Positions 4,265-64,000 of a DNA stretch of 64,000 bases are shown piece by piece (position 1 is the stretch's first letter; each line of letters opens with the position of its first letter). The DNA is from Deltaproteobacteria bacterium. Its GTDB lineage: Bacteria; UBA10199; JACPAL01; GCA-016699445. A program made the position numbers and the translations under genes. The notes under the pieces were generated by a model. That model worked only from the letters and a program-made list of their open reading frames with translations. It had not been told where the DNA came from and made no database searches. The stretch lies in assembly GCA_016699445.1 (NCBI GenBank), contig CP064976.1, positions 2,222,619 to 2,286,618 of the forward strand, in the 5' to 3' direction.

Positions 4265-4397
4265 TCCCCCACCACCCCTTCGGGGAGCCTCCCCCATAAA
4301 TGAGGGAGGCCAAAAAACAAAAAATCGCAAAATAAATGACCCTCCCTTTTTAGGGGAGGGAAGTTCCTATCATGAAATTATTGAGGGTGGGGTAGAG
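4265..4397. repeat. Structured repeat, family A copy 3 (with ~25-nt internal insertion); 3' arm overlaps the UbiA-like gene C-terminus
   Basis: Same 5' half as copies 1-2; the GGGTGGGGTAG arm read on the minus strand encodes the terminal ..LPHPQ* of ORF 4378..5238. Confidence 0.75.
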
Positions 4398-9810: not shown

Positions 9811-9838
9811 AAAATCCTCATTTTTATAGTTTTAGTTT

Positions 9839-11647: not shown

Positions 11648-11850
11648 GATAAAATTCCCTTTCTATTAAGATTCTTCGTAATTCTTTTAAAGAAGTTGTG
11701 TTTTGTGTGAGAAAAAAATGAGATAATAAAAATTTTGTAAATATTATAGAGGGTTAGGATGAAAATTTTGTTTAAAAAATAAAAGTAAGCCTACGAAAAG
11801 AAAAAAAGATGGTGAGTTGAAGCTGGGACTGTTTGTTCTGAAAAAAACGA

Positions 11851-13548: not shown

Positions 13549-13688
13549 TTAGAAAGCTCTTTTCCAGAAAACTTTTTATTAGTATTACATTGATGTCTTA
13601 AAAGTACGTTTAATCATTATCGACATTATAAATAAAAAAGTTGCCTAATATTTTTTTAAAAACTTTTATCCTTTTTAGATATTTCTCC

Positions 13689-15464: not shown

Positions 15465-15524
15465 AATTATCCTTTCATGAGTTTCTGTAGTCGCAGGTGA
15501 TTTGTAAAAGTTTCGAATATTTTT

Positions 15525-17198: not shown

Positions 17199-17326
17199 AA
17201 GTTTTTATTATTTCCTAATTATTTACAGTCTTTTATTAAGCATCGTATTGTCTTTTCAAAAGTTGCTAAGTAATTTTGAAAAAAATAAATAAAATCATGG
17301 ATTAGATTATTATCTTCTCATGACGT

Positions 17327-18517
17327 CTAGCATGATTTGCCCGCTGCCCACCCGGACGACCAGGCCCATTGGAAGTTGTAGCCGCCGAGTTCTCCTGTGA
17401 CGTCCAAGACTTCTCCAACAAAAAAAAGTCCTGATATGGATTTTGATTCTAGGGTTTTGGATGAGAAATGGTCAGTGTCGACCCCACCTCGGGTCACTTC
17501 AGCGCGTGCGTAGCCCACTGTTTTTTCGGGAGTCCATGTCCAATGATGAATTTTTTCCACGAGCTCTAGAATTGTTTGATTCGAAATTTCGACAAGCGGT
17601 TTGGAAGGAAATTCAAACACAGTGGCTAAATGCTCTGCCAAGCGGGATGGCCAAAAAATTCCCATGAGAGTTTTAAACGTTTTTTTTTCGCCCTGATTTT
17701 TTTTCTCCAAAAACCATTCTGACAGTTTTTGATTTTGACACCAATCAATCTCAATAGATTCTTTTTGCTTCCAATAGAGTGACGCTTGAAGAGCTGCTGG
17801 ACCGCTTAAACCTTGATGAGTGATGAGTAGGTCGTCTTCAAAATTTTTTGTTTTGGTTCGAATACACACAGGGGTTGAAAGACCTGAAAGCGTTTTCCAT
17901 AAATCCTGAAATTCAGGATTTCCACGAAAACCATCGAGGGCAGGGGATGTGGGGATGATGTTCATGTGAAACTGTTTAGCAATTTCATAGCCAAATCCCG
18001 TGGCTCCAATTTGTGGTAGCGACAGTCCACCCGTCGCGATGACGAGAGTCTCTGAAGAAAAATTTCCCTGTGAGGTTTCTGTTAAAAAATTTTCCGGATC
18101 TTTTTGAATCGAGAGGACTTTTGTCTCCAGAAGTATTTTGACCCCAGCCTGTTCGCATTCATGAAGGAGCATGTTTAAAATATCTTTAGCGGAGTTTTGA
18201 CAAAAAAGTTGTCCGGGTTTTTTCTCCACGTAAGCAATCTTGTGTTTTTGAATCAATTCCAAAAAATGATGAGGGGTATAACGAGAGAGGGCGGATTTGC
18301 AAAAATGAGGATTTTGAGAAACAAAATTTTCAGGAGTCGTGTTGAGATTGGTGAAATTGCACCGACCACCACCTGAAACCAAAATCTTCGCTCCCGCTTT
18401 GGTATTGTGATCGATGACGACAACTTTTCGTCCTCTTTTGGCCGCTTCAATCGCGCAAAAAAGTCCCGCAGCTCCAGCACCGATAATGAGTGTGTCGTAA
18501 TTTTTCTTAATATTCAC
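17327..18517 (-). CDS. FAD-dependent oxidoreductase, HI0933/BaiN-like family
   Basis: N-terminal dinucleotide fold YDTLIIGAGAAGLFCAIEAAKRGRKVVVIDHN and GGGRCNFTN motif. Confidence 0.8.
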   Translation of the reverse strand: MNIKKNYDTLIIGAGAAGLFCAIEAAKRGRKVVVIDHNTKAGAKILVSGGGRCNFTNLNTTPENFVSQNPHFCKSALSRYTPHHFLELIQKHKIAYVEKKPGQLFCQNSAKDILNMLLHECEQAGVKILLETKVLSIQKDPENFLTETSQGNFSSETLVIATGGLSLPQIGATGFGYEIAKQFHMNIIPTSPALDGFRGNPEFQDLWKTLSGLSTPVCIRTKTKNFEDDLLITHQGLSGPAALQASLYWKQKESIEIDWCQNQKLSEWFLEKKNQGEKKTFKTLMGIFWPSRLAEHLATVFEFPSKPLVEISNQTILELVEKIHHWTWTPEKTVGYARAEVTRGGVDTDHFSSKTLESKSISGLFFVGEVLDVTGELGGYNFQWAWSSGWAAGKSC

Positions 18518-19352
18518 CGTGCGGGTTTACAGCATGATCATGTAAATCATTCAAGAATGGAAGAAGGCCGGTTTCCACAGAGAGGTTGGGCATGATTGGT
18601 TGGCCACTAGAATTTTGACAAGTGATGGTGATGACTCCCGAAGTAAGACCACCATCCTGACTTAAAAAAGAAGCTTCAAATACTGCTTTGCCTAGAGGAC
18701 CTCTTTGATTCTGTTCAAATCCTGAAAAAATTAGTGCAGAAAGTGTGATGGTTGCTGGGGTTAAATCTCCAGCTGGGATGAGACCGGATCGTTGAGCTAA
18801 TTGATAGACGAGTGTTGGTATTTGCGCACTATGAGTCTCATTTCCAAAAAAAGCTTGTGCGATAGCCATCAAGTCGGGGTTAAATTTGATTCTAATACTG
18901 AGTTGTCCAGGAGAATCTGGACCAGGGCTGCTGGCGATTTCCGTTGTCACTCTGTATGAAATGGAAGCGCCTACACCTAAAATCAGTGTATCCGTGAATG
19001 AAAAAAGCGTTCCAGCATTTGCTTGATTTGGATCTAAACTCTTCCTGATCAATGAGATCTGTTTGTCACTGTCTTGATGGAGATAATTTATTTTTGAGAT
19101 TCCACCAGCGGTAGATGTGTTCTCTGACCAACCTGCGGGCACTGGAGGTCTTGGTTCTTCGTGAGAGCGGGCGAGTTGATGGTAAATAAATGGAAGGAGC
19201 ACATGTAAAGGATATTCTGTTTCCATTTTTTTATACATACTTGCAACGATGCCATCTGTATGTGCCGATAACGGAGGAAGGTTTAATCCTGTTGTAGGTT
19301 CGTAAGAAGCAGTGTTTAAAAAGCTTGTGACATATGGGGTTATTGTTGCCAT
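18507..19352 (-). CDS. Hypothetical protein, 281 aa; polar uncharged N-terminus
   Basis: ORF with N-terminus MATITPYVTSFLNTASYEPTTG; overlaps the start of the downstream oxidoreductase by 11 nt. Confidence 0.5.
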   Translation of the reverse strand: MATITPYVTSFLNTASYEPTTGLNLPPLSAHTDGIVASMYKKMETEYPLHVLLPFIYHQLARSHEEPRPPVPAGWSENTSTAGGISKINYLHQDSDKQISLIRKSLDPNQANAGTLFSFTDTLILGVGASISYRVTTEIASSPGPDSPGQLSIRIKFNPDLMAIAQAFFGNETHSAQIPTLVYQLAQRSGLIPAGDLTPATITLSALIFSGFEQNQRGPLGKAVFEASFLSQDGGLTSGVITITCQNSSGQPIMPNLSVETGLLPFLNDLHDHAVNPHGEY

Positions 19353-19470
19353 TATTTTCTCCTTAAACCTTATCGCACTGACATTGAAAAAGTTTCGTCT
19401 TTATTTATTTCATCTTTATATATTTCTTCTTGCCGAACTCTTGATTCAAGGGAATGAGTAGCCACTCATT

Positions 19471-20484
19471 ATGAAGAGAATTGATTCTAAACAGGCTCTA
19501 AATATTTGGGAAAGTGATTGGACGTCACTTCGATCTCAATCTCATGAAGCGCGTTGTGAACATTATCCTGATGGGCAGGCGAGCTATGTTGTCATGCGGA
19601 TTGTGAGCTATACCAATGTTTGTGTGGCGGATTGTTCTTATTGCGCCTTCTACCGTCGACCCAATGACGATGGGGCTTATGTCCTTTCGAAGGAAGATAT
19701 TTTTTCTAAAATTGACGGACTTCTAGCTGTTGGTGGGTCGGTGGTGGCTATGGAAGGGGGATTTAATCCCAAGCTTAAGATTGAACATTACGAAGATCTT
19801 TTTGCGTCCGTGCGTAAGCGCTATGGAGATAAGATTGAGATTTATGGGTCTACGATTGTCGAAGTGATTTTCATTGCGAAGAGTTCGCGTATTTCACTGG
19901 AAGAAGCTCTCATCCGTCTCAAAGAAGCTGGATTGCGTTGGATTCCGGGTGGTGGTGCTGAAATTTTAACCGATGCCTGGCGCGCAAAGCTTTCTCCTAA
20001 AAAATATTCGGTGAAAGATTATATTGAAGGCATGCGAGTGGCACAAAAACTTGGACTCGGTACCACAGCGACGATGGTGATTGGTTTTGGTGAAACAGTT
20101 GCCGACCGTATTGAGCATCTCGAACATATCCGTCGTCTTCAAGATGAGACAGGTGGTTTTGCGAGTTTTCTTTTGTGGACCTACCAACCCCTCAACACTC
20201 CCATGGGAGGCTCTCTCACCAGCAATGACGACTATCTTCGCTCAGTCGCCTTAAGCCGTTTGTATTTGGATAACATCCCTGTGATTCGTGCGTCTTTTCT
20301 CACTCAATACGACAAAGGCCCCGAAGCTCTCACTGCCGGTGCTCATGATTTTGATATCCCTCTAGAAGACCAAGTCACCCAACTGGCCGGCGCCAAGATT
20401 GAAGAAAATGTCGATCGTGTGTTGGAGTGGGTAAAGAAGTCTGGGATAACCCCTCAGAAAAGGCTCCCATTTTCTTTGAAATGA
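19471..20484 (+). CDS. Radical SAM menaquinone biosynthesis enzyme, MqnC/MqnE family (futalosine pathway)
   Basis: 337 aa; CxxxCxxC cluster motif in SYTNVCVADCSYCAF. Confidence 0.8.
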   Translation: MKRIDSKQALNIWESDWTSLRSQSHEARCEHYPDGQASYVVMRIVSYTNVCVADCSYCAFYRRPNDDGAYVLSKEDIFSKIDGLLAVGGSVVAMEGGFNPKLKIEHYEDLFASVRKRYGDKIEIYGSTIVEVIFIAKSSRISLEEALIRLKEAGLRWIPGGGAEILTDAWRAKLSPKKYSVKDYIEGMRVAQKLGLGTTATMVIGFGETVADRIEHLEHIRRLQDETGGFASFLLWTYQPLNTPMGGSLTSNDDYLRSVALSRLYLDNIPVIRASFLTQYDKGPEALTAGAHDFDIPLEDQVTQLAGAKIEENVDRVLEWVKKSGITPQKRLPFSLK

Positions 20485-24926: not shown

Positions 24927-26215
24927 TTACAACACATCCATAAACGCACTCACCGAAAAGACGGCCTTGCCTAATCCTGCTTCTCCATAACCGGGTGGGA
25001 TGGGGAGTTTGTATTTGTAAAAAGTCTCTCGATACACTTGGAGGAGGCGTAAGTAATAATCCAGAGGTGGCGGGCCTTCGTTGGTTTTGGCCAATGTGGT
25101 GTTCGGTTCGACACACCACACGGTGAAGCGGGGGCAGATGGATTGTGACATGAAAAAATCTAAACCCTCTTGCGTAGATCGAATCGCAGCTTCGATATCC
25201 GTGAAGCCAAAAGGTTTGGCCATCTCGATGCCGGCAACAAAATTAGGAATGACTTTTTCAGGGCCGAAAATTTTGGCTCCAGCCAGAATGCGGCGGATCC
25301 ATTCTTTTGACCGACATAGCGTGTTTTACCAGGACAGACGTGGTTAAAAATCTTTTCATCCCAGACTTCATAATTCGGGTGATAAATTTGATAGCCGGAA
25401 TCTTTTAAAATTTTAATTTCGTCATCAGGCAATCCTTGCACCACAGCCTTGCCAATCCAACGCCCGGGAAATTTTGCCTCGATGGCTTGAGCATATTGAG
25501 CGTAAAACTGTGCCTCGTTCATGCCACCCAGTTGTGAAGTGATACTGCCTCCGGTGACGGTATAAGCATGGCTCAGTTTTTGAGGATCATGTTTTTCAAT
25601 AATCTGCAGGGCTTCGATGACTTCATCTAAAGATTTGATTCCTGTATAAGAACGACCTTCGGCCTTTTGTTGGCGGTAGTTGTGGTTGATGTCGCAAAAC
25701 GCACATTCTTCTTCGGCTCCAAAATACTGACAGAGACGGAAGGCGGTAATGTAAATCAAATATCCCCACTCAATCGTGGGTGTGATATCGCTGACAGGTT
25801 TTCCATTAGCGAGGGGTTGTGCGTAATAATCCGGAAATGATGGGAGAAGAATGTCGCAGATTTTTTCGTCGTGAAAAAATAATTGTAGGGGCAATTCATG
25901 AATTGCCCCTACGGTGATTCGATACGGCGATTCCGGATTCACACGTACAGAAACTATCGTACGTTTAAAATCAAAAGGTCCTCCAATGAGGGCAATTTCT
26001 TCAGGTGCTGATTTTTTTTCTAGTTGTGAAAGATCTTTTTGAGCGGTGCGATCAAAGGAAAAAATAAAATAGGATTTTGGTTTGGCAGCTTTGCAGGCTT
26101 CCAAGGCTTCATTTGAAAATGAAATACCTAAACGTAGTAGATCTGTTTTGATGATCGCTTCAAATGGAATATCGCAGTATGTCTCCTTCAATATTAAAAA
26201 ATCTTCAGGCTTCAT
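24927..26215 (-). CDS. Hypothetical protein with Cys cluster (CX8CX2C) and TGG motif, possibly radical-SAM-like; contains the 28-bp palindrome in frame and a frame change near 25310
   Basis: ORF 25160..26215 reads through the palindrome (..ITVGAIHELPLQLFF..); C-terminal continuation in the frame of ORF 24927..25223 (..RRILAGAKIFGPEKVIPNFVAGIEMAKPFGFTDIEAAIRS..). Confidence 0.4.
25885..25912. mobile_element. 28-bp palindromic insertion element, copy 2 (perfect palindrome)
   Basis: GTAGGGGCAATTCATGAATTGCCCCTAC; encodes VGAIHELPL in the host ORF, the same peptide as copy 1. Confidence 0.75.
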
Positions 26216-26952
26216 GATTTCAAAAGCTCCGCCTTAAAAATATAGTCTTTAAAAAGTGCGATCGCTTTTGTTTCTTCAGTTCCCAAAAAATAATTCAGAT
26301 TTTCAAGGTAGCTTTTGATTACTTCAAACGGAAGTGATGTTTTATGCGGAATCACAGAAGCAATATTTTTTACTCCTTGATCACGAGCTTGTTGAAGTTC
26401 TTGAATAGCTTTATCACTGACTTCAGGATGTCGGCTCATCCACGCGGCAAAGACAAAAGGAAGACCTGTCCACGAAGTCCATTCTTCTCCTAAATCTAAA
26501 GCAGGATTGGTTGGCAATTCCAGCATAGCCTTGTCGCCGATCAAAAGTTTTCCTTCGACATGGCGTGGGGGAAGGGGATGGAAAAACTGAATATCATTAA
26601 GATCACGACCATATTTAAACTTTAACAAAACCTTAAGAAGAAGAGCTGATGTTTTCGACTCCATGTCGAGATAGATGGTTTTAACATTATGAACAGTCAC
26701 TTCAGGAGATGTGAAAAAAAGTTTTACACTTTTAACAGCACCTCGAGAGCCAATACAAACACCGGGAATCAAAGTATAATGAGGATTTTCAAAAAGAGTG
26801 ACGATCGGAGCTGTAGCAATATCGATTTCCCCAATTTTTAAAAGTCGAGCCAGAGCCGCGGGCACTTCGAGACGAGGCTTTTCATCAAGAGGAAGATAAT
26901 GAATCAGCGGCAATGAATTCCAATAAGGCACAGCGCCAAGGTGATAGAGCAT
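26212..26952 (-). CDS. mqnA: Chorismate dehydratase MqnA (futalosine pathway), MqnA/MqnD family
   Basis: 246 aa; N-terminal LGAVPYWNSLPLIHYL resembles the MqnA periplasmic-binding-like fold signature. Confidence 0.7.
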   Translation of the reverse strand: MLYHLGAVPYWNSLPLIHYLPLDEKPRLEVPAALARLLKIGEIDIATAPIVTLFENPHYTLIPGVCIGSRGAVKSVKLFFTSPEVTVHNVKTIYLDMESKTSALLLKVLLKFKYGRDLNDIQFFHPLPPRHVEGKLLIGDKAMLELPTNPALDLGEEWTSWTGLPFVFAAWMSRHPEVSDKAIQELQQARDQGVKNIASVIPHKTSLPFEVIKSYLENLNYFLGTEETKAIALFKDYIFKAELLKS

Positions 26953-46779: not shown

Positions 46780-46851
46780 GCGGGAGTAGCTCAGTGGTAG
46801 AGCGCCACCTTGCCAAGGTGGATGTCGCGGGTTCAAATCCCGTCTCCCGCT
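46780..46851 (+). tRNA. tRNA-Gly (anticodon GCC)
   Basis: Cloverleaf: acceptor GCGGGAG/CTCCCGC, D-arm GCTC..GAGC, anticodon loop TTGCCAA, T-arm GCGGG-TTCAAAT-CCCGT; no encoded CCA. Confidence 0.85.
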
Positions 46852-48644: not shown

Positions 48645-50269
48645 CTAAAGCCCAAGAGTTTTGAAAAAATCATTCCCCTTATCATCAATTAAGATAAAGG
48701 CGGGGAAATTTTTCACGTCGATTTTCCAGACCGCTTCCATGCCGAGCTCAGGAAAATCGAGACATTCGACTTTATTAATATTTTCTTCTGCAAGGACCGC
48801 TGCAGGGCCTCCGATCGATCCTAAGTAAAATCCGCCATATTTCTTGCAGGCATCAGTAACTTGTTGGCTGCGATTGCCTTTGGCAATCATGACCATGCTG
48901 GCACCTTTGCTCTGTAAAAGATCCACATAAGAATCCATGCGACCTGCCGTTGTGGGTCCAAACGAACCTGAAGCTTTACCTTTGGGTGTTTTAGCAGGAC
49001 CTGCATAGTAGATGGGGTATTTTAAAAGATAATCAGGAAGAGGTTTGCCGGCATCGATAATCTCTTTAAATTTCGCATGGGCAATATCACGACCTACGAC
49101 AATGGTTCCTGTGAGAAGGAGGGCTGTGGAGACGGGGTATTGTGAAAGTTGAGCCAGGATTTCCTTCATGGGACGATTGAGATCAATTTTAACACCGATT
49201 TCATTTTTGGTGCGGTATGAAGGAGGAATCAAGCGGCCTGGATTGCGATCCAATTCCTCAACGAAAAGTCCGTCACGAGTGATTTTAGCTTTGATATTTC
49301 GATCGGCAGAGCAAGATACTGCCATCCCAATGGGGCAGGAAGCTCCATGCCGTGGCAGACGGATTACACGCACATCATGAGCAAAATATTTTCCGCCAAA
49401 TTGAGCTCCGATACCGATATGAAAAGCTTCATTTAATAATTTTTTTCAAGCTCGACATCACGAAAGGCTTGGCCATGTTCGTTGCCTTGAGTGGGCAGTT
49501 CATCCAGATAATGAGTGCTGGCCAATTTGACTGTTTTTAAGCACGCATCAGCGCTCGTGCCGCCGATGACAAAAGCCATATGATAAGGTGGACATGCTGC
49601 AGTGCCCAAGGTTTTCATTTTTTCGACCAAAAATTTTACGAGTTTTTCAGGAGTCAAAAGCGCTTTGGTTTCCTGAAAGAGATAGGTTTTGTTGGCAGAA
49701 CCGCCACCCTTGGCTAAAAAGAGAAATTTGTAGCTATCCCCATCGACGGCTTGAATATCAATTTGAGCGGGAAGGTTGGTTCCTGTGTTGATCTCATCAT
49801 ACATATTGAGCGCAACAGTTTGTGAGTATCGTAAGTTTTCTTCCGTATACGTTTTGTAAATTCCCAATGAGAGAGCTTCTTCGTCTTTTCCACCCGTCCA
49901 GATATTTTGACCTTTTTTGGCGATCACATGGGCTGTGCCTGTATCTTGACAGGTAGGGAGGCTAAAGTTGGCAGAAATTTCGGCATTGCGCAAAAAAGCC
50001 AAAGCGACACCTTTGTCGTTTTCCGAAGCTTCGGGATCATTCAGAATTTTGGCGACTGATTCATTGTGCTCAGCGCGAAGCAGAAAAGAAACATCGCGCA
50101 TCGCTTCATGGGCAAGTTGTGTGAGTGCTTCAGGCTGGATGCAAACGACTTCTTTTCCATTAAAACTTTGAACACTCACTAAGTTTTCAGAGTCTTCAAT
50201 TTTTCGATAACGTGTCGAGTCGTTTTGAAGTGGATACGGATTTTGATAAACAAAAGGTTTAGTCGTCAT
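48645..50269 (-). CDS. fumA: Fumarate hydratase class I (Fe-S), frame-disrupted at an A7 run (~49415)
   Basis: N-part with CQDTGTA; C-part [25 protein letters not shown]...[31 protein letters not shown]; alternate frame across junction reads ..[28 protein letters not shown].. Confidence 0.85.
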
Positions 50270-50337: not shown

Positions 50338-52269
50338 TCATTGAGGCTGATTAATTGATAACAGTGGTGACATCCCGATTAAAGCTCTCGCTGTTGTAAA
50401 AATAACTTCAATAACAGCTTCTGCTGAAGGTGGAGTGCTATTTTTCGACAAGTTGGAAAAAAAACTATAACCAGCTCTCAGTGAAAAATGAGAGTTATGT
50501 GTTCTCAAAAGGACGTCCAATAATAGTGGATCTAGAAAGAGCGTTTCAGGGAATTGCCCTGGGTGCTCAATATACCTAATGTTTTGTTTTCCAAGCCAAT
50601 CATATACTTTGTCGAGGCGATCTCTCTGTATGGGGCCTATGCTTTGGATCAAGGTTTGAAGCTCTTTTTTAAGAACCTCCAACCTTTCGGAATCCCCTCT
50701 TAAAAGTGATTGAACAAATTGGTCTCTTAAATTTTTGAGTTTAATGATGATATTCAGAAGCTCTTGGTCTTCTTTAGTAAGTTTTGGATGCGGCGTTACT
50801 TCATCAGGAAGTGGATCTTGTGGAGTTTGATAAAGTGGAGATAGTCGATTCCAGTTTGATTCATGGAGCTGTGCTTTAGCCTGTTGTTTCCAAGCTAGGA
50901 CAGCAGGTAGGTTCGCCCAAGGTGACCATGAAAGATGCGCTCCAAGTAAAGTGAGCAACGGAGAACCTTTCTTCAAGAAGGGTCTTTTGCTTAAAAGTGC
51001 AATCAAGAGTGCCGGGTGTTGATCTTTTTCAATGATTTTTGAAATTATAGAAGCCGCGTAAGCTGCTTGATCTGTAAAAGAGGGTGGGGGTAAGCCCAAT
51101 GCTTCTGCTACTTTTTCCCATTGGGAGGTTTCTTGAGATAACTCCATCATGGACAGTATTAATTCTATGCAAATCAGACTTCTTTTTTCTTCTAAAACTT
51201 CTTCAAACCTATGCAGAAGAATAGAATGATAAATGTTCGTAATCCGTTCCCGTAGTCGTTTGATTTTATTACCTATGAAATGTTCAGAGCCATCCCTGCT
51301 TTTTTTTGTAAGTTGGGCCACTCTCAAAGAGTCCTTCTGATAATGACTGATAACTTCGCGGGTCCAAATAGCATAATCATTAGCTGTGGTAGATGCAGGT
51401 CTTGTAGCAGGATCTATAGTTATTAAGGGATCTTGATATCCATAAACATAAGGCCTTTCACTCCAGTTTGAATAGGAAGGTTGGAGATGCGTAAAGGGTA
51501 GAGGCGGGTTTGTAGCCTTCACTTCATCCGCATGAGGATAAGGATCGATAAAGCCAAAAAGAAGATAGAGAAATTTCGAATTGCTGTAGAGCTTATCTTT
51601 TAAAATATTAGGAATAGCTGTCCAAGCTTCTTGTAGGCGTCGACATAAATAATCAATAAGTGGGAAATTTTTTTCGGAGGCTTGCATGAGAATCTCTAGT
51701 ATCTCTAAAAGAGTTTCTAAACTTTTGTAAGAACAAGTATCCGGAGAAAGCAGATTTTCGATCCAAGTAATTGTTGCTGTAAAAGGGAGACTTTCTGATC
51801 TTGGAGGTTTCGATTCTTCATATTCTCCACACCATTGATTAGAGAATGTTCGCATTTCTTCTAAAACTTCTGGCAGAGAAAACCCTCGGGTGTACCAATC
51901 TCTCAACAAGGCATAAGGTTCCATTTCAATGACTTCAGGATTTCCAGTGAGCTGAGTCGGCCACAAAGGATCTTGTTGAGCCAAAAAGTTTATTCCTGAT
52001 GTACGAATTTGCTCAGCAGTGAGACTATTTGAGACCCAAATCTCAAATGAATCCGGTAATCTTTCATCTGAAGGTTTTAGACGGGGTGCTAATAACGCAC
52101 CAGCTCCTCCTAAAACAACTACAGCCACCAAACTAAGAAGAGGTGGTACTTGAGAAGTCGATAAAACGTCCTCCCCCTGTGAAGCTGGCTGTAAGTGAGC
52201 ATCAGCTGCAGGTGCAGAAGGAAAAACAGTTGCAGTCGGAGAACCTGTGATAACAAAAGGCGGTGGCAT
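50338..52269 (-). CDS. Hypothetical protein, 643 aa, single N-proximal hydrophobic helix; polar uncharged N-terminus
   Basis: MPPPFVITGSPTATVFPSAPA.. then LLSLVAVVVLGGAGALLA helix; no recognised domain. Confidence 0.55.
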   Translation of the reverse strand: MPPPFVITGSPTATVFPSAPAADAHLQPASQGEDVLSTSQVPPLLSLVAVVVLGGAGALLAPRLKPSDERLPDSFEIWVSNSLTAEQIRTSGINFLAQQDPLWPTQLTGNPEVIEMEPYALLRDWYTRGFSLPEVLEEMRTFSNQWCGEYEESKPPRSESLPFTATITWIENLLSPDTCSYKSLETLLEILEILMQASEKNFPLIDYLCRRLQEAWTAIPNILKDKLYSNSKFLYLLFGFIDPYPHADEVKATNPPLPFTHLQPSYSNWSERPYVYGYQDPLITIDPATRPASTTANDYAIWTREVISHYQKDSLRVAQLTKKSRDGSEHFIGNKIKRLRERITNIYHSILLHRFEEVLEEKRSLICIELILSMMELSQETSQWEKVAEALGLPPPSFTDQAAYAASIISKIIEKDQHPALLIALLSKRPFLKKGSPLLTLLGAHLSWSPWANLPAVLAWKQQAKAQLHESNWNRLSPLYQTPQDPLPDEVTPHPKLTKEDQELLNIIIKLKNLRDQFVQSLLRGDSERLEVLKKELQTLIQSIGPIQRDRLDKVYDWLGKQNIRYIEHPGQFPETLFLDPLLLDVLLRTHNSHFSLRAGYSFFSNLSKNSTPPSAEAVIEVIFTTARALIGMSPLLSINQPQ

Positions 52270-52418
52270 ATAGAGACTTATTCGGAAGATGAAAAAGTAA
52301 GTTGCGATTTTTCATCAGTCTTTATTTTGCTTTCATAAAAATCCGCAACTTTTGATGCTTGTTTGCCGATGACTAAGAATCATTAAAAAGATTTATTTGC
52401 CGTAACGCGTCAATTTCT

Positions 52419-53408
52419 ATGAGTTTTTGTCATGACTCTCGGGTTGACATAATCAGAGGGCGCAGGGTAACACCGCGCAAATTTTTTGTGAAAATAAACA
52501 AACTCAAAATCGTTTCTCTCTTATTGGTCCAGATTTTTCTGGCCTCATCTTGTAGTCTCTCCAAAATCGCATCGGACATGACTTCTGATATTTTTAAGGG
52601 TGGTGTTCCATCCTTTGAAATGGAAGGAGATGTCGAAGTGGCTGAAAATGCCGGCTTGGCGATGATCAAGACTTTGGAAATTTTTAATTACCAAAATCCT
52701 TCCAACAAAACCTATCTGGCTCTTCTCTCTCGTTCTTATGCTACGTATGCTTTTGGATTTTTGGAAAACCGCATGTTGCAGTATCAATATAAAGATCAGG
52801 AAAAATATAATCTCTATTTTAACCGAGCCAAACGTTTTTACACTATTGGTAAAAAATACGGGATGGATCTCTTGCAACGTTCTGACAAAAAGTTGGTCAA
52901 AGCTTTGGGGCAGGGTGTGGATGCCACGCGGGCTCGTATGAAGTCTTATGATCATCAAGAAGTGGAGCCGGTGTTTTGGACAGCTTTTAACTGGGGAAGT
53001 CTCATTAATCTTTCTAAAGATGATATCTCCGTTGTGGCTGATTTGGCTCTGGTGGAAGTGATGATGGCGCGCATTTTGGAAGTGCACCCCACATTTTATT
53101 TTGCCGGCCCACATCTTTTTTATGGTGTTTATTATGCGAGCCGTCCCGCAATGCTTGGGGGAAGTCCTGAAAAAGCTAAAAACCATTTTGAAGAAGCCGC
53201 TCGCTTAAACGGTGATAGGTCGTTGATTGTGTATGCTTTGGAAGCTCAGTTTTTAGCGGTACAGACAATGGATAAGACTTTGTTTGACGAATTGCTGGAA
53301 AAAATTAATGCAGGATCGATCGATGCTTTGCCAGAACAGAGACTCGCAAACTCACTGGCGAAAGATCGAGCGAAGTATTTGAAGGAAAATTCGAATCAGT
53401 ATTTTTAA
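52419..53408 (+). CDS. TRAP-transporter-associated TPR-like lipoprotein (TatT family); start probably internal
   Basis: Internal signal/lipobox IVSLLLVQIFLASSC; TPR-like helical protein immediately upstream of a DctP-type binding protein. Confidence 0.6.
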   Translation: MSFCHDSRVDIIRGRRVTPRKFFVKINKLKIVSLLLVQIFLASSCSLSKIASDMTSDIFKGGVPSFEMEGDVEVAENAGLAMIKTLEIFNYQNPSNKTYLALLSRSYATYAFGFLENRMLQYQYKDQEKYNLYFNRAKRFYTIGKKYGMDLLQRSDKKLVKALGQGVDATRARMKSYDHQEVEPVFWTAFNWGSLINLSKDDISVVADLALVEVMMARILEVHPTFYFAGPHLFYGVYYASRPAMLGGSPEKAKNHFEEAARLNGDRSLIVYALEAQFLAVQTMDKTLFDELLEKINAGSIDALPEQRLANSLAKDRAKYLKENSNQYF

Positions 53409-53426
53409 ATACAAAAGGGAGGTTGT

Positions 53427-54434
53427 ATGAATAAAGGTTTTTCTAAGATCGTCGCGGGTCTTGTGATGAGTCTCGCTGTTCTAGCAGGTTCAGCCGTTCA
53501 AGCTCAGCAGGCTTCTAATATCAAAGAATTGAAGTTTGCCACTTTAGCTCCCAGCGGATCGTCATGGGATAAGCTTTTTGTCGCGTGGAAAGATGAAGTG
53601 ATTCAACGCACGAATGGTCAAGTGGTTCCTAAGATTTATGCTGGTGGTGTTCAAGGTGATGAGAAAGCTGTTGTTCAAAAAATCCGCAGTGGTCAATTGG
53701 TCGGTGGTGGTTTGACGGGTTTTGGTTTAGGAATGATTGCTCCTTCCGTTAGAGCTTTAGAGCTCCCTTTTTTATTTAAAGATGGTGCTGAAGTCGATAC
53801 CGCTATTCAAAAAGTAGATACTTCCATGCGCGCGGCTTTTAATAATGGCAATCCTCAAGTGGAATTGTTGGGTTGGGCTGAAGCTGGTTTTGTTTACATC
53901 ATGTCCAATAAGCCAATTGCTAAGCTTGATGACATGAAGGGTGTGAAGATGTGGATGTGGGAAGGGGATCCTGTAGCCGAAGCCCTGTACTCTTCACTCA
54001 ATGTGACTCCTGTTCAGCTTTCTATCGCTGACGTTTTAACGTCACTTCAAACCAGCATGATTGAAGCTGTGTATGCGCCTCCCATGGGTGCTGTGGCTCT
54101 TCAATGGGCGTCTAAAGTCAAATATGTGACAGATCTTCCTTTGGCTAATTCCATTGGTGGTTTGGTGATGAGTAAAGCTGAATTTTCTAAGCTGACTCCG
54201 GAACAACAGAAAATCTTAAAAGAAGTTTCGCAAAAATATTGTCGTCAAATTGTGGAACAAACACGAAAAGATAATGCAGCAGCTTTTGACTCCCTTGTGA
54301 AGTTGGGTGTTCAAAAGGTTTCTGTAGCTGATGCAGATAAACAAGCTTTGGTTAATTTGACTGTAGGTGTGGGTGATAAGCTTGTGGGTAAACTTTATGA
54401 TCAAGCCACTCTATCGAGTGTGCGCGGGAAATAA
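53427..54434 (+). CDS. TRAP transporter substrate-binding protein (DctP family)
   Basis: Signal peptide then DctP-family periplasmic binding fold, 335 aa. Confidence 0.85.
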   Translation: MNKGFSKIVAGLVMSLAVLAGSAVQAQQASNIKELKFATLAPSGSSWDKLFVAWKDEVIQRTNGQVVPKIYAGGVQGDEKAVVQKIRSGQLVGGGLTGFGLGMIAPSVRALELPFLFKDGAEVDTAIQKVDTSMRAAFNNGNPQVELLGWAEAGFVYIMSNKPIAKLDDMKGVKMWMWEGDPVAEALYSSLNVTPVQLSIADVLTSLQTSMIEAVYAPPMGAVALQWASKVKYVTDLPLANSIGGLVMSKAEFSKLTPEQQKILKEVSQKYCRQIVEQTRKDNAAAFDSLVKLGVQKVSVADADKQALVNLTVGVGDKLVGKLYDQATLSSVRGK

Positions 54435-54436
54435 TC

Positions 54437-54934
54437 ATGAAGCAACAATTGAATAACTTGAATGAACTGATTGGCAAGATCGAGACGTTTTTTGTCTCGA
54501 TCTTGCTGTCTGTGATGATCGTTTTAGCATTTCTCCAAGTAGTGATGCGCAATGTTTTTAATGAAGGCATTCCTTGGGCTGATAGTGTGGTGCGTTTGAT
54601 GGTGCTGTGGGTGGGATTGTTTGGTGGTTGTTTGGCAACCAAACTGGAACAAAATATCACAATAGAAGTGATGACCAAATACATGCCAGAGCGTGGTAAA
54701 CATTTGGTAGGTGTTTTGGTGAAGAGCTTTGCTGTGATTGTTTGTTTGTATCTTTTTAAAGCCTCTTTAACCTTTATTCAGAATGAAAGTAGTTCTGGAA
54801 GTGAGTTTTTACATCTCTTCCCTGATTGGTGGACTGTCACTATTATCCCTATCGCTTTTATTCTGATCCCTTTTCACTTGTCCTTTAGTATTGTGAAAGA
54901 TGCTCAGTATTTTCTGAAAGGAAAGAAATCGTGA
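54437..54934 (+). CDS. TRAP transporter small permease (DctQ)
   Basis: 165 aa, four hydrophobic helices, positioned between DctP and DctM. Confidence 0.75.
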   Translation: MKQQLNNLNELIGKIETFFVSILLSVMIVLAFLQVVMRNVFNEGIPWADSVVRLMVLWVGLFGGCLATKLEQNITIEVMTKYMPERGKHLVGVLVKSFAVIVCLYLFKASLTFIQNESSSGSEFLHLFPDWWTVTIIPIAFILIPFHLSFSIVKDAQYFLKGKKS

Positions 54935-56203
54935 CAACTCTCTTGGTGGTTTTGATTGTTTTAGCGGCAGCTTTTGGGGCTCCGCTTTTTTCCATTTTTG
55001 GGGCAGGTTCTTTAGTGGGTTTTATCAATGCAGACATCAATCCGTCGGCGATTATTATTCAAATGACACAATTGGTTTCAGCGCCAGCGCTAGTGGCTAT
55101 TCCTCTTTTTACTTTTGCCGGCTACATGATGGCAGAAAGTAAAATGCCAGAGCGTTTGGTGAATGTTTCTCAAACTCTCTTAGGTTGGATGCCGGGTGGT
55201 TTGGCATTTGTCACTCTCTTTGCTTGCTCTTTTTTTACAGCGTTTACTGGTGCTTCAGGTGTGACAATTATTGCTTTGGGAGGACTTCTCTATCCTATCC
55301 TTGTTAAACGAGGTTATCCTGAACACTTTTCATTAGGAATGATGACCTGTTGTGGAAGTTTGGGGCTGCTGTTTCCACCGAGCTTGCCTATCATTCTTTA
55401 TGGGATGGTGGCAGGAGTGGATGTTGATAAGCTCTTTATGGCAGGTCTTGTTCCAGGGATTTTGTTGATTGTCATGATTGCAGCTTACTCACTTTATATT
55501 GGGCGTGGTCATGCCATGAGAGTGCCTTTCAAGTTGAATGCTACACTCAAAGCTTTGAAAGCTGCAGGTTGGGAAATTCCTTTGCCATTTTTAGTTTTGA
55601 TTGGCGTCTATGGTGGATATACGACCGCTTCAGAAGCGGCAGCAGTCTGTGCAGCCTATGTTTTTATTGTCGAAGTTTTCATTTATAAAGATCTAAGTCT
55701 GACTAAAGATGTTCCCCGTGTGATGAAGGATAGTATGGTTTTGGTGGGGGGGATTTTGGTGATTGTGGCTGTGGCCTTGGGTTTTACCAATTATGTGATC
55801 GATCAAGAAGTGCCGATGAAGCTTTTTGCTCTTACGAAGAAGTATATCTCAAGTCCCTACATGTTCATGACGATTTTAGATCTCTTCCTTTTAATTGTGG
55901 GTTGTTTGATCGATATTTTTTTCAGCTATTTTGGTTATTGTTTCAATTATTGTTCCGGTGGCGATGGGGTATCATATTGACCCTGTTCATTTAGGAATTG
56001 TCTTTTTGGCCAATATGGAAATCGGTTATTTGACGCCTCCTTTTGGTCTAAACCTTTTCTTGGCTGGGTATCGTTTTAAAAAGCCTGTGGCGAAAGTGTT
56101 TGTGGATTCTTTGCCTTTTATTATTATTTTGCTGACAGGGCTGGCCTTACTCACTTATTTCCCCATTATCAGTACCTATTTAGTAAATAAGATTTATCAT
56201 TAA
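54931..56203 (+). CDS. TRAP transporter large permease (DctM), frame-disrupted at a T7 run (~55920)
   Basis: ORFs 54931..55980 and 55931..56203 overlap; T8 instead of T7 gives continuous ..LIDIFFSAILVIVSIIVPVAMGYHIDPVHLGIVF..GYLTPPFGLNLF. Confidence 0.8.
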
Positions 56204-58259: not shown

Positions 58260-58841
58260 TTATTTTAAACAACACTTCTTGTATTTTTTCCCACTGCCGC
58301 AAGGACAAGGATCATTACGGCCCGTCTGATTTTCGTTGATAATAGGCTGAGGTGCTGTGGGAAGGACAGGGGCTTTTTTGAAATATTCTTTCATGTCATC
58401 TTTGGACATGGCGATGACTCTGTCTTTTTCTGATTCAGAAATGGATTGTTGCCACCAGTTGATTCCGGGTCTCATGATTTCCGCAAGGCCTTCCATGTTT
58501 TTGGGAATCTTTTTGCCGGTTTCTTCTTTGTAACGTTCCAAAATAATTTTAGCTAAAATCTCCTGAGCTTTATTGGTTTTCTCATGCTTGTCTTTAGCTT
58601 CTTTGGTGGAAATTTTACGACGCTCCGCAATATCTTTGATGGTGCAATCATAACACATAATGATCGCAACTGGATTTTGTTGAGTGGGTGTCGTGGTTGA
58701 ACCAAACTTGCCTTTGTTGTTACAGACTCCGCAAATACAGCGGCCCCATTTGAGAATTTCACCTTTGATTGATGCTTGTTGCTGGACGATTTTTTGTTGT
58801 TGCATGCGGGCGTAACAAACAGGAATTTTTATAAGGGTCAA
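58260..58841 (-). CDS. SEC-C-motif protein with N-terminal Cys-rich region
   Basis: C-terminal [20 protein letters not shown]; N-terminal CxxC-type clusters ([12 protein letters not shown]). Confidence 0.55.
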
Positions 58842-60913: not shown

Positions 60914-61858
60914 ATGACTCAAAAAACAATTATTATCGGGACTCGTGGAAGCCCTCTGGCACTTTGGCAGGCTAATTTCGTAAAAAATTTACTGTTGGAA
61001 GAATATGCAGACCTGTCTATTGAGCTCAAAATTATCAAGACGACAGGGGATAAGATTGATCAGATCCCTTTGGCTGAAATTGGTGGGAAAGCTCTCTTTT
61101 TAAAAGAAATCGAAGAACAGCTTTTAGATGGGAATGTTCATTTGGCTGTTCACAGTATGAAAGATGTGCCGACAGTTTTTCCCAAAGGCCTTAGGCTTGC
61201 GGCTGTATTGAAACGAGAAGATCCACGAGATGTGATGATTTCGCATAAATATGCGTCGTTGGCAGCACTTCCCAAAAAGGCTGTGGTGGGAACGAGTTCT
61301 TTGAGAAGAAAAGCACAGCTTAAAAATTGGCGTAGTGATTTGGAGATTGTTCCTATTCGTGGAAATGTCGATACACGACTGAAGAAGCTTGAAACAGAAA
61401 ATATGTCGGCCATTATTTTGGCTTCAGCAGGGATGACCCGATTAGGTCTTTCAAATCATATTACAGAATATATTAATCCTGAAACGATGTTGCCGGCTGT
61501 AGCTCAAGGAGCGATCGGGATTGAAGTTCGTGAAAAAGATGAAGACATTTTAAACTTGGTCAAATGCCTCAATCACCGCGAGACCGAAATCTGTGTAACC
61601 GCTGAAAGATCATTTTTGAAAACCATTGAAGGGGATTGCCAATCTCCCGTGGCTGCACATGCGGTTTGTCATGGAGAAACTTTAAAAGTAGAAGGAATGG
61701 TTTCGACTTTGGATGGTTATGAAGTAATCAAAGATTCCGTTTCCGGATCCATTGATGCCCCAGGCCTTTTGGGTGAGCAACTCGCTCGAAAAATATTATC
61801 TCAAGGTGGAGACACTATTTTAGAAAGATGTCGTCTTAATCATTATACAAAGTCTTAA
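60914..61858 (+). CDS. hemC: Hydroxymethylbilane synthase (porphobilinogen deaminase)
   Basis: IIIGTRGSPLALWQANFV N-terminus; full-length HemC 314 aa. Confidence 0.9.
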   Translation: MTQKTIIIGTRGSPLALWQANFVKNLLLEEYADLSIELKIIKTTGDKIDQIPLAEIGGKALFLKEIEEQLLDGNVHLAVHSMKDVPTVFPKGLRLAAVLKREDPRDVMISHKYASLAALPKKAVVGTSSLRRKAQLKNWRSDLEIVPIRGNVDTRLKKLETENMSAIILASAGMTRLGLSNHITEYINPETMLPAVAQGAIGIEVREKDEDILNLVKCLNHRETEICVTAERSFLKTIEGDCQSPVAAHAVCHGETLKVEGMVSTLDGYEVIKDSVSGSIDAPGLLGEQLARKILSQGGDTILERCRLNHYTKS

Positions 61859-62334
61859 ATAGAGACGTTCTCTAAGAATTCTCGACATGAATAAATCTCT
61901 CGATAAATTTTCTTCCCAGCTCTGAGAAATCTTTCATCAGATGTGATAAACGGAATTTTTCGATTCATGGCTACAGCTAGATAGCTACAGTCGTAGATTC
62001 TCTTGAGGTCTAGCCGAGAAGCTAAGTCTGTGGCTGTTTTAAGAACAGAGGCCTGCCATTGAAAGATCAAGTTAGTATGGTAAAAGATATCGATAGCCGT
62101 ATCTCTCTCTAAATGGCTCATTCCCTCTTTTTGTGATTTTTGATGAAGTGCTGAAATAACTTCAAAAAAAACAAGACCAGGTTCAAAAAGATCTATCGAT
62201 TCTTCATCAATTTTATCCCAGAGCTCTAGTGCCGCTTGATGGAGTGGTTCCACTTTAACGAGTGCTGCGATGAAAATATTAGCATCCAAACATATCTCTG
62301 TTGGTACTAAATGCATTTTATCCCCCTTCCTCAC
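61855..62334 (-). CDS. PIN-domain protein (VapC-like toxin)
   Basis: CLDANIFIAAL and C-terminal PFITSDERF motifs; probable start at internal Met MHLVPTE. Confidence 0.65.
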   Translation of the reverse strand: MRKGDKMHLVPTEICLDANIFIAALVKVEPLHQAALELWDKIDEESIDLFEPGLVFFEVISALHQKSQKEGMSHLERDTAIDIFYHTNLIFQWQASVLKTATDLASRLDLKRIYDCSYLAVAMNRKIPFITSDERFLRAGKKIYREIYSCREFLENVSI

Positions 62335-62410
62335 GAATTTGATTAATCAGGTCAGCAGCTGAAAATGGTTTCATATGAGGATGTTTTTTGCCAGCTTTTC
62401 AGAAAACTCT

Positions 62411-62605
62411 CTAGCCATGGAAGCAAATGATTTTCTTTTTAGGTCGTGTTGATTGCTTCCAGTTTTCATAATCGAGAATAACCGCAATAGGTTTCCCATG
62501 TTTTTTAATGAGTAAAGGTTCGTGTTTGGTGAGTACTGACTGTAAATAATCTCCAAACCTATTTTTCACATCTGTGGCCGTCGCTGTATTGGGTTGATTT
62601 CTCAT
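62411..62605 (-). CDS. Phd/YefM-type antitoxin (C-terminus uncertain)
   Basis: ATDVKNRFGDYLQSVLTKHEPLLIKKHGKPIAVILDYENWK; upstream of the PIN gene. Confidence 0.55.
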   Translation of the reverse strand: MRNQPNTATATDVKNRFGDYLQSVLTKHEPLLIKKHGKPIAVILDYENWKQSTRPKKKIICFHG

Positions 62606-62699
62606 TTTTAAATAATAGCTAAAATAGCTAATTTGTCAAAAGTTAATCCTGGGAAGCAACTAATTGGTAGGTTTGACGATAATGTAATAAAGTTTATTT

Positions 62700-64000
62700 A
62701 TGACAATACCAGCGACAATACAGACTGTTTCACCTGAACACCTCTTCTTCAATACTCAACTTATAAGTGCTGTTGAAGCGGTGGTTGAGGAACCCCTATC
62801 TCAGACCCAATTTTCTCAGGAGGCTTTTCAACAACTTGCTATTAGAGGTTTCAAGAATGAACTTGCTTGCTCTCGCTTCCAATCTAAAGCGAGAGCACTT
62901 GTAGCTGCGCATGGGATTCCTAGTGGGTTGTCTTGGAGTGCGTCTTTCTTTGAATTTCTTGGGCGTAGGGCCGATGAAAGAGGCGAATTACCTGCGATGA
63001 TGCAATCAATGCTGACATATCTAGGCCCAGCATTAGAACACTACCAAACTATTTATGCCTATAAAAGAGGGGAGCTTACTGATGATGAAATCAAAACTCG
63101 TATTGATTCAGGTCAGCTATGGAATCCTCAAAGGGAATCTGCACCTTCACTCCCCATAGGAGTTCGTCACTATGGTGATAGTGGTGGTTTTGTCCTGTCG
63201 TTAGATTTCGATATGCAGAAAGTGCAAGATGAGCAGCACGTTTTAGATTATCTAAAGCGGTTGAGCATGCACCCATCAGGGCTTTTGTTTAAAACGATTA
63301 TATTTAGGAAAGCTGTCCCTAATGATCAATTTATCAGAAAAATTTTTGAAGTTACTTCTGTTTCCTCAATCAACATTGATTGTATTCAGTCTGAAGCTGC
63401 CAAGAATCTGAATAGCTTTTTTAGAGCGATTCCAGATGACAGACTAACTTGTTTAACAATTAATAATGTCAAATCACTTTCTGTGCAGGACTTGGCTAAT
63501 TGTCAGTTTGTCAGGGGGCTTAGAGAACTTCGAATCGTGCAAACACGTGTTAGTGTCGATGCAATTCGAGAATTATCAGAACTAAATTGGGTGAAGTTAA
63601 AGAAACTTTCTTTAAATGGTTGTCAATTAACGGTCGAGGCTTTGGAGGCTTTAGTAAACTCAGGTATGCTGAATGGAATGACTGAGTTAGACCTTTCTGA
63701 AAATGATTTTGGTGATGTTAGGGACGAGTGTTTGACTTCATTAAATTGTCCCACACTTGAAATTCTAGTTTTGAGAGCATGTGAGCTTACAGATGGTGGG
63801 TGTATTGCATTGGGCAATAGTAGTATGGTTAGATTAAAAAAGTTGGATATCAATCAAAATCCAAGAATTGGCGATCAAGGGATTTGTGCATTAGTTGAAA
63901 ATAGCAAGGCTCTAGAAGATATTGCATTGGGCTATACTCAAGTTGGGAGGGCAGGTGTCGAAGCATTGAGTCGTTTAACTAATTTAAAGCGATTGCATTT
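62700..64000 (+). CDS. Leucine-rich-repeat protein, ribonuclease-inhibitor-like repeats (partial, continues past window end)
   Basis: ATG 62700, frame open to window end (not in ORF track); C-terminal LxxLxLxxCxLT repeats (LKKLSLNGCQLTVEALEAL.., LEILVLRACELTDGGCIAL..); N-terminus MTIPATIQTVSPE. Confidence 0.7.
   Translation, partial: MTIPATIQTVSPEHLFFNTQLISAVEAVVEEPLSQTQFSQEAFQQLAIRGFKNELACSRFQSKARALVAAHGIPSGLSWSASFFEFLGRRADERGELPAMMQSMLTYLGPALEHYQTIYAYKRGELTDDEIKTRIDSGQLWNPQRESAPSLPIGVRHYGDSGGFVLSLDFDMQKVQDEQHVLDYLKRLSMHPSGLLFKTIIFRKAVPNDQFIRKIFEVTSVSSINIDCIQSEAAKNLNSFFRAIPDDRLTCLTINNVKSLSVQDLANCQFVRGLRELRIVQTRVSVDAIRELSELNWVKLKKLSLNGCQLTVEALEALVNSGMLNGMTELDLSENDFGDVRDECLTSLNCPTLEILVLRACELTDGGCIALGNSSMVRLKKLDINQNPRIGDQGICALVENSKALEDIALGYTQVGRAGVEALSRLTNLKRLH

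Follow-up and report, generated by a model that had tools for sequence, protein, structure and literature searches.

The 64,000-nt stretch of contig CP064976.1 analyzed here (the window; positions are counted from its first letter) ends inside the gene for a leucine-rich repeat (LRR) protein, IPJ69_12600, that a first-pass annotation of the DNA had singled out. IPJ69_12600 is a lineage-restricted, two-part protein in which an orphan helical head precedes an LRR horseshoe, and its gene is real, intact, and under overall purifying selection. Taken alone, it adds another member to a common class of bacterial LRR proteins, and a database record of it as a hypothetical protein exists already. Its value lies in a linkage, in that promoter motif, N-terminal composition, and codon composition jointly mark lineage-specific genes in a complete genome of the candidate phylum UBA10199/bacteriap25. 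The LRR gene and seven Pfam-orphan or extension-bearing genes of the window form a set of eight that shares three independent properties: a promoter motif, an acid-free N-terminus rich in Ser, Thr, and Pro, and a low GC content at third codon positions (GC3). The LRR gene is probably a member of a co-regulated gene set; that its product is an exported effector, a proposal made by analogy, is more doubtful. The overall reading that we tentatively prefer is that of a co-regulated, possibly exported, target-binding protein.

A two-part protein encoded by an intact gene

The frame that opens at ATG 62700 on the plus strand meets no stop codon in the 433 codons that remain before the window ends, as the first-pass annotation had stated, and it is indeed missing from the list of open reading frames (ORFs), in which frames running off the sequence are not entered. 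An in-frame TAA sits 12 nt 5' of this ATG, which makes 62700 the earliest possible start. The full gene was recovered beyond the window: an NCBI protein of 651 aa, titled 'MAG: hypothetical protein IPJ69_12600 [Deltaproteobacteria bacterium]' (MAG, metagenome-assembled genome), matches the whole of the fragment at 100% identity, and its remaining 218 codons lie past the window end. The features of the gene within the window are as follows.

62700..64000, plus strand: coding sequence, codons 1–433 of 651 of IPJ69_12600 (open frame and NCBI identity)
62700..62744, plus strand: N-terminal segment MTIPATIQTVSPEHL, residues 1–15, rich in Ser, Thr, Pro, and Ile, uncharged until E13, predicted disordered
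62700..63191, plus strand: orphan α-helical region, residues 1–164 (Pfam-blank, profile search, AlphaFold)
63192..63293, plus strand: probable N-terminal capping unit, residues 165–198, with strand 167–171 and helix 178–189 (AlphaFold, moderate confidence)
63294..64000, plus strand: LRR units 1–9 and the start of unit 10, residues 199–433 (repeat table, LRR_6, AlphaFold, Foldseek, phmmer against the PDB)

The sole ortholog, P0002 (647 aa; 72% amino acid and 83% nucleotide identity), comes from the Logan assembly of SRR1027651, and the family has two known members. A scan of species-representative genomes with the fragment (GTDB, in a set without this MAG) returned no relative, and a scan of metagenome contigs (JGI) with the two-ortholog alignment returned no further copy. 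The ortholog bears directly on whether the frame is a non-functional or artefactual one, a suspicion fed by the nanopore-derived assembly, in which the reading frame is broken in dnaJ, in dctM, and probably in the Phd antitoxin. Because the window carries such frameshifts, it matters that P0002, from an independent short-read assembly, shares the start, the frame, and the stop region, with only whole-codon insertions or deletions between the two; the frame is intact. All 651 codons are open, and over the 433 codons in the window the nonsynonymous and synonymous divergences from the ortholog (dN = 0.165, dS = 0.267) give a dN/dS of 0.62, significantly below 1 (p = 0.002). A non-functional or artefactual frame is effectively refuted already.

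The three peptides quoted in the first-pass annotation as examples of the repeats are all present (LSLNGCQLTVEALEAL, residues 303–318; LEILVLRACELTDGGCIAL, 353–371; LKKLDINQNPRIGDQGICAL, 379–398), and the profile search it had called for gives Pfam LRR_6 scores of 47.4 bits for the fragment and 62 bits for the full protein, against a cut-off of 23.4. The full protein holds 17 LRR units (residues 199–651), of 25, 25, 25, 26, 27, 26, 26, 26, 24, 27, 26, 26, 26, 26, 28, 31, and 33 residues. The median is 26, and just one of the 17 units has 28 residues, so that the period of about 28 first proposed does not hold. The consensus is LxxLxLxxNx(I/L)(G/T)DxGxxAL, with Leu at position 1 in 13/17 units, at position 4 in 12/17, and at position 6 in 10/17, Asp at position 13 and Gly at position 15 in 6/17 each, and Ala at position 18 in 9/17. 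The conserved Cys/Asn that had been noticed corresponds to position 9, where Asn is found in 5/17 units and Cys in 2/17; Thr and Ser also occur there (2/17 each), and the four residues together account for 11/17.

AlphaFold2 predicts an α/β horseshoe of 19 strands alternating with helices, with a per-residue confidence (pLDDT) of 80–93 over most of residues 270–651. Foldseek searches of the PDB place mouse ribonuclease inhibitor (RI) first (3tsr_E, E = 3e-15, target-normalised TM-score 0.69), followed by human RI (1a4y_A, E = 1.2e-14), with further matches to NLRP proteins, the RipG4 LRR, COI1, FBXL2, and a Legionella LRR protein. The RipG4 LRR (PDB entry 9j7j) has the highest target-normalised TM-score, 0.74, at a root-mean-square deviation of 4.1 Å and 24% identity. 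When PDB sequences are ranked instead, RipG4 (52 bits, 2.9e-13) leads pig RI (43.9 bits, 8.8e-11), and FBXL17 and FBXL2 follow.

The repeats fit the CC-LRR subfamily, the period and consensus of which were defined in its updated form by Kajava et al. 2008 (PMC2244805), because they combine a 26-residue period with the N/C/T...I-G/T-D...G..AL motif. The LRR_6 score and the disposition of β-strands on the concave and α-helices on the convex face agree with this assignment, and a real CC-class LRR binding module is very probable. The likeness extends to the N/C/T ladder, the I-(G/T)-D element, the Gly three residues on, and the helix on the convex side. CC-LRRs of the Skp2/FBXL type, including GALA-like ones, also occur in bacterial proteins that lack an F-box, in Legionella, Gemmata, and Parachlamydia (PMC2244805). 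IPJ69_12600 differs from the class in having neither an F-box nor any recognisable partner domain, in an Asn more often than a Cys at the ladder position, and in an LGDxGxxAL element that leans toward the RI consensus.

The first-pass description of the repeats as RI-type therefore stands in part. The helix-backed LRR_6 class and the RI-like horseshoe (3tsr_E, E = 3e-15) are both found, but the period is 26, and the alternating 28/29-residue units of RI are not. Mammalian RI (3tsr, 1a4y, 1dfj) resembles the protein in its horseshoe (E ~1e-14 to 1e-15, target-normalised TM-scores of 0.64–0.69) and in LRR_6, and differs from it in those alternating units and in having no extra domain; identity is 16–20%. 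An effector of the IpaH/SspH kind, carrying a NEL E3 ligase, was considered and rejected: the full-length Pfam scan returned LRR families only, with no C-terminal NEL domain, and the period is 26 rather than the 20–22 residues of LPX repeats.

The region in front of the repeats is an orphan by every search made. Residues 1–198 match no Pfam family even at E<=10, and a two-sequence profile of the N-terminal region, run against 1.84 billion representatives, found only the ortholog P0002 and two spurious repeat-protein matches. AlphaFold predicts six or seven helices there, among them those at residues 12–29, 40–50, 54–71, 78–94, 97–122, and 128–136, with low confidence (pLDDT ~54) whether the whole protein or the region alone is modelled, and Foldseek finds no fold match in the PDB (best E = 1.9). 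The first 10 residues have a pLDDT of 28. The maximum 12-residue hydropathy of the N-terminus, 1.04, lies under that of the signal or transmembrane segments of other genes. A Sec, Tat, or lipoprotein signal was rejected: there is no basic n-region, unbroken hydrophobic core, RR, or lipobox.

Origin of the repeats and variation of the concave face

For a search of 5.8 billion clusters, pre-filtered on shared words, the LRR part was used by itself. The ortholog aside, matches reach no more than ~31% identity and 80 bits. The nearest relatives are metagenomic proteins (25–31% identity, 60–80 bits) that JGI names 'TIGR02996 family', and with NCBIfam TIGR02996 is above its cut-off in three of the nine best (P0010, P0011, and P0014) and near it in two more. 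Eukaryotic proteins rank lower, at up to 60 bits (a Capsaspora NOD3-like protein, a chytrid F-box protein, LRRC31, RanGAP). Although bacterial proteins of the TIGR02996 (rpt_mate_G_obs)/STM4015 kind are the closest LRR sequences in large databases, IPJ69_12600 differs from them: the NCBIfam scan of the full protein finds no TIGR02996 domain, and its STM4015 family score is 51.3 bits, below the cut-off of 275. No paper on SRR1027651 or TIGR02996 was found in a literature search.

The eukaryotic origin raised in the first-pass annotation fares poorly as a recent event, given that bacterial TIGR02996-type LRRs outscore eukaryotic ones and that the best PDB sequence match, RipG4, is bacterial. As judged from these sequence comparisons, 'eukaryote-like' holds only at the level of the repeat class, and nothing in them supports a eukaryote as recent donor. 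A stronger form of the idea, in which an FBXL-, RI-, or NLR-type LRR was recently acquired and now mimics host F-box adaptors in the manner of GALA/RipG, can point to RipG4 as top PDB sequence match and as the LRR with the best target-normalised TM-score, and to the matches with FBXL17 and FBXL2. There is also a likeness to the Ralstonia solanacearum GALA/RipG proteins in layout, with the LRR after a non-LRR N-terminal part of export-signal-like composition. Those proteins, however, have an F-box, 24-residue repeats, and proven status as substrates of a type III secretion system (T3SS). In IPJ69_12600 no F-box, F-box-like, U-box, BTB, or NEL domain was found, residues 1–198 being Pfam-blank; just one of its 17 units has the 24 residues of GALA-LRR; eukaryotic proteins stay at ~30% identity or less and score below the bacterial ones; and its GC content and codon usage do not fall outside what the genome's other accessory genes show. 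Such an acquisition is very improbable.

The protein evolves fast, and differences between the two orthologs are concentrated on the concave face. With the solvent-exposed x positions of the β-strand face taken as positions 2, 3, 5, 7, and 8 of each unit, 43 of 85 concave positions (51%) differ over the whole protein, against 86 of 283 (30%) elsewhere in the repeats (Fisher p = 0.001). Changes are fewer in the core, with 18 of 85 positions, and in the N-terminal region, with 41 of 198; the orphan helical part (residues 1–164) is 79% identical to that of the ortholog. In the window-covered part, the concave positions have a dN/dS of 1.19, as against 0.56 over the remainder of the LRR and 0.55 over the N-terminal region, all from small counts. 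This variability predicts where the LRR binds its partner. That the concave face is a ligand-binding surface tracking a changing partner is suggestive only, because just two sequences could be compared.

Promoter motif, N-termini, and the putative regulon

The first-pass annotation had likened the N-terminus of the LRR protein to those of a gene cluster in the window, a likeness that is borne out as one of composition and not of homology. The cluster (7747–17198, minus strand) consists of five consecutive large genes, for products of 687, 602, 565, 591, and 557 aa. Two encode paralogous PlsC-type acyltransferases with N-terminal extensions of ~330 aa, one a HAD hydrolase with a hydrophobic C-terminal region, and two are Pfam-blank; the sole database homolog of the 557-aa protein is a 99% identical copy. 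When the 59 ORFs of at least 150 aa were scored by Ser+Thr+Pro minus charged residues over residues 2–13, the LRR protein ranked fourth, and the top nine held all five cluster genes together with 18507–19352 and 50338–52269. A combined filter (an aliphatic residue or Pro as third or fourth residue, first 12 residues free of acids, first eight uncharged, no hydrophobic signal-like segment) lets 7 of 48 genes through; all seven belong to this set, and no housekeeping gene is among them.

Mean GC3 is 0.288 in the eight genes of this N-terminal class and 0.381 in the other 40 (Mann-Whitney p = 1.2e-6). BLASTP of the full LRR protein (P0001) against all ORFs of the window shows no paralogy with the cluster proteins, so that the three shared features were not co-inherited from an ancestral gene.

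The third shared feature lies upstream. A 36-nt block in front of the LRR gene is better conserved between the two loci than the coding sequence, and its comparison with other upstream regions revealed a shared motif, [GA][CA]AACT-N15/16-CGA, resembling promoters of extracytoplasmic function (ECF) sigma factors. There is no Shine-Dalgarno sequence between the motif and ATG 62700. The ortholog locus has GCAACT-N16-CGATAATG. The block and the intergenic copies in the window are listed below.

62652..62687, plus strand: 36-nt upstream block GGAAGCAACTAATTGGTAGGTTTGACGATAATGTAA, with two differences from the ortholog locus L001
62656..62684, plus strand: ECF-sigma-like motif GCAACT-N15-CGATAATG, with the CGA ending 21 nt before ATG 62700
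11676..11699, minus strand: motif ACAACT-N15-CGA, 29 nt before orphan 9839–11647, with 7747–9810 in the same operon, 28 nt downstream
13620..13644, minus strand: motif GCAACT-N16-CGATAATG, upstream of 11851–13548, the acyltransferase with an N-terminal extension
15491..15514, minus strand: motif GAAACTTTT-N-CGAC, upstream of 13689–15464, the HAD hydrolase with extensions
17243..17266, minus strand: motif upstream of 15525–17198, the acyltransferase paralog
19373..19396, minus strand: motif upstream of orphan 18507–19352
52282..52305, minus strand: motif 13 nt upstream of orphan 50338–52269
52345..52369, plus strand: motif in the same intergenic region, on the opposite strand, before the TAtT/TRAP operon 52419–55980
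36930..36953, minus strand: weaker motif ACAACT-N15-CGAC, 11 nt upstream of orphan 35840–36919

The window holds 18 copies of the motif, whereas 200 dinucleotide shuffles of it gave 4.8 ± 2.2 (maximum 13). Half of these copies (9/18) are intergenic, correctly oriented, and 11–72 nt before a start codon, and seven of the nine precede genes of the N-terminal class, the others standing before the TRAP operon and orphan 35840–36919. The eighth class gene follows a motif-bearing gene in its operon. Motif and class are thus associated (7 of 8 genes against 2 of 40; Fisher p = 3.7e-6). A position weight matrix trained on six other sites, with that of the LRR gene left out, ranks the latter eighth of 127,910 positions scored (17.5, against a background of -18.4 ± 7.7); only the six training sites and the TRAP site outrank it, which makes it the second-best non-training site.

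ECF promoters are marked by an AAC at -35, in a subset of ECF groups by a T-tract next to the -35 region, by a CGw in the -10 element, and by spacers of 14–17 (PMC5758882). The site of the LRR gene reads GCAACT-N15-CGATAA, that is AAC-N16-CGA, and so shows the AAC, the CGw, and a spacer of this kind. Spacing from AAC to CGA is 16–17 nt throughout the set and matches TGAAAC-N16-CGTA (PMC5758882). The T-tract is present as AACTTTT at the sites of 11851–13548, 13689–15464, 15525–17198, 18507–19352, and the TRAP operon, and is replaced by AACTTCT at 9839–11647 and by AACTTAC at 50338–52269. The genes of the TRAP operon (TAtT-DctP-DctQ-DctM) are without the N-terminal feature, and the motif in front of it suggests that the putative regulon is not confined to orphans.

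The parallel is the regulon of the ECF sigma factor HrpL in Pseudomonas syringae, where ECF-type promoters (hrp boxes) and an acid-free, Ser/Thr/Pro-rich N-terminus, with Pro or an aliphatic residue third or fourth in the chain, likewise mark a gene set. The motif sequence differs and the organism is unrelated. This is an analogy and not membership. In P. syringae, T3SS substrates follow three N-terminal rules: a Ser content above 10% over residues 1–50, Pro or an aliphatic residue at position 3 or 4, and a first dozen residues free of acids (PMC3338616). The latter two are also part of the combined filter. The LRR protein follows two of the three, having I3 and P4 and its first acidic residue at E13.

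In the reading we prefer, a disordered, charge-poor stretch of 15 residues leads into the orphan helical region, to residue ~165, and then into the 17-unit CC-class horseshoe, the concave face of which would bind a fast-changing protein partner. One alternative (ECF-type) sigma factor would switch on the whole set, and the shared N-terminus would direct export by a route other than Sec, in the manner of type III signals. Because that N-terminus is read as an export signal, the protein would act outside its producer, on another cell.

Several observations weigh against this. No secretion apparatus (sct or flagellar), chaperone, or sigma-factor gene was seen in the 64-kb window. The effector of a host-associated bacterium to which the first-pass annotation had alluded stays conjectural. 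To our knowledge, the nearest LRR relatives, which are planctomycete- or myxobacterial-type proteins, are not known effectors. The site of the LRR gene (AACTAATT) lacks the T-tract next to its -35 region and is the weakest of the seven, and the same motif stands before a TRAP transporter operon, in keeping with a stress regulon of the ordinary kind. The set of genes with similar N-termini was drawn up post hoc, and the concave-face analysis is a two-sequence one. The third of the T3SS-substrate rules fails, with Ser at 8% (Ser+Thr 18%), and the rules themselves are compositional, come from a distant organism, and are not strictly required there (PMC3338616).

The main rival, nearly as likely, is that the protein is an intracellular or envelope LRR scaffold in an ordinary ECF-sigma stress regulon, non-exported and binding a bacterial partner, comparable to the TIGR02996-type LRR proteins that abound, uncharacterised, in planctomycetes and myxobacteria. 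It comes so close because the transporter operon shares the motif and because secretion and sigma-factor genes were examined within the window only. The similar N-termini would then stem not from export but from the composition that AT-rich accessory genes have in common, or from constraints on the initiation of their translation, and low GC3 across the class means that composition could shape them; Ser, Thr, and Pro codons, however, are not AT-rich, so that composition alone is insufficient, and no housekeeping gene of the window has such an N-terminus. The bacterial TIGR02996-domain proteins among the nearest LRR relatives and the lack of secretion genes in the window agree with a scaffold, as do the regulon candidates themselves (lipid acyltransferases, the HAD hydrolase with its hydrophobic C-terminus, the TRAP transporter), ECF regulons classically serving envelope stress (PMC5758882). 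A dN/dS of ~0.6, a variable concave face, and a two-member distribution would be unusual for a housekeeping scaffold.

The co-regulated, possibly exported protein that we prefer has a more ambitious version, which we consider unlikely: the LRR protein would be one of an exported effector repertoire, controlled by a dedicated ECF sigma factor and recognised by a shared unstructured N-terminal signal, in a producer with a reduced genome (2.75 Mb). Were this so, the widespread and uncultured UBA10199/bacteriap25 lineage would attack or inhabit other cells (protists or bacteria), and promoter motif and N-terminal pattern together could read out the whole effector set from a genome. That would provide the first testable hint on the lifestyle of the lineage along with a simple rule for listing effectors; if the regulon is instead one of stress, the same rule defines that regulon. 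The LRR protein itself is ordinary; the moderately interesting lead is its regulon-like linkage, seen in the complete genome of a phylum yet to be described.

Some further ORFs of the window deserve mention. A 193-aa product (58260–58841, minus strand) has a SEC-C motif at its C-terminus and a FliS-like match that falls short of the threshold (20 bits, cut-off 26.7), and could be a chaperone candidate if an export system is found. A 190-aa, Pfam-blank ORF (1554–2126, plus strand) begins MGSSSSTNPAG, with a Ser-rich, uncharged stretch of 16 residues and G2 and S6 as in eukaryotic N-myristoylation sites; its start (TTG) is uncertain, and no ECF-like motif was found upstream. Three adjacent or overlapping Pfam-blank ORFs of 600, 359, and 227 aa occupy 33935–37505 (minus strand), and it is the 359-aa one that has the weaker motif.

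Genomic surroundings and host organism

Going upstream from the LRR gene, one meets a Phd/YefM-PIN toxin-antitoxin pair (61855–62605) and then hemC, encoded on the opposite strand. At the ortholog locus (L001, 1–9601) the pair is absent; the ortholog lies next to a 599-aa orphan with a Sec signal and to an operon for type II secretion that looks complete (GspF, G, pseudopilins, K, and an L-like gene). Similarity of the two loci begins 48 nt before the ATG, with no synteny upstream of 62652, and because it starts only there, neither neighbourhood informs function. A functional link to the adjacent PIN toxin was accordingly rejected, the adjacency not being kept at the ortholog locus. Substrates of type II secretion require a Sec or Tat signal; this is absent from the LRR protein, which was therefore rejected as such a substrate despite the operon near its ortholog.

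The toxin pair also bears on an RI-like neutraliser, in which the horseshoe would block the producer's own or an incoming toxin or nuclease, with the concave face in an arms race. Complexes of RI with RNase are the best structural matches, the concave face is hypervariable, and the PIN-domain toxin gene is immediately upstream. This toxin, however, has its own Phd/YefM antitoxin and is encoded on the opposite strand; the ortholog stands beside no toxin gene, upstream synteny is absent, PADLOC defence models give no match, and the repeat period differs from that of RI. Such a role is improbable.

A scan for sigma-70 promoters picked up the antitoxin promoter but nothing on the plus strand in front of the LRR gene, and no terminator was found. 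The minus-strand promoter of the toxin-antitoxin pair, at 62639–62612, is sigma-70-like (11/12), and a direct repeat, AATAGCTAA x2, is a possible antitoxin operator. Rfam and tRNA scans show nothing near the LRR gene; their sole match in the window (Rfam/ARAGORN) is a single tRNA-Gly(GCC) at 46780–46851 on the plus strand.

CP064976 is the MAG EsbW_18-Q3-R4-48_MAXAC.279_cln, a circular genome of 2,746,553 bp from activated sludge (Singleton et al. 2021, PMC8012365), with a CheckM completeness of 89.8% and contamination of 0.65% (PMC8012365). It is placed in p__UBA10199; o__2-02-FULL-50-16 by GTDB, in Myxococcota; bacteriap25 (98.2%) by SILVA, and in Oligoflexales 0319-6G20 by MiDAS (PMC8012365). 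Among 185,579 species representatives, the closest DnaK to that of the window is only 80% identical. Literature on bacteriap25 was found to consist of amplicon surveys only.

Apparent frameshifts in conserved genes were seen at 29960–31110, 54931–56203, 48645–50269, and 62371–62605. The J-domain of dnaJ is in a frame that differs from that of the gene's remainder, dctM carries on in a second frame, class I fumarate hydratase is split over two ORFs, the second of which opens with the end of the N-terminal domain, and the C-terminus of the Phd antitoxin lies in a different frame. These are probably indel errors of the nanopore-based assembly rather than pseudogenes. The window also encodes enzymes of the futalosine route to menaquinone: a radical-SAM enzyme of the CofH/MqnC type, an MqnA-type VitK2_biosynth protein, and a UbiA prenyltransferase (19471–20484, 26212–26952, 4378–5238).

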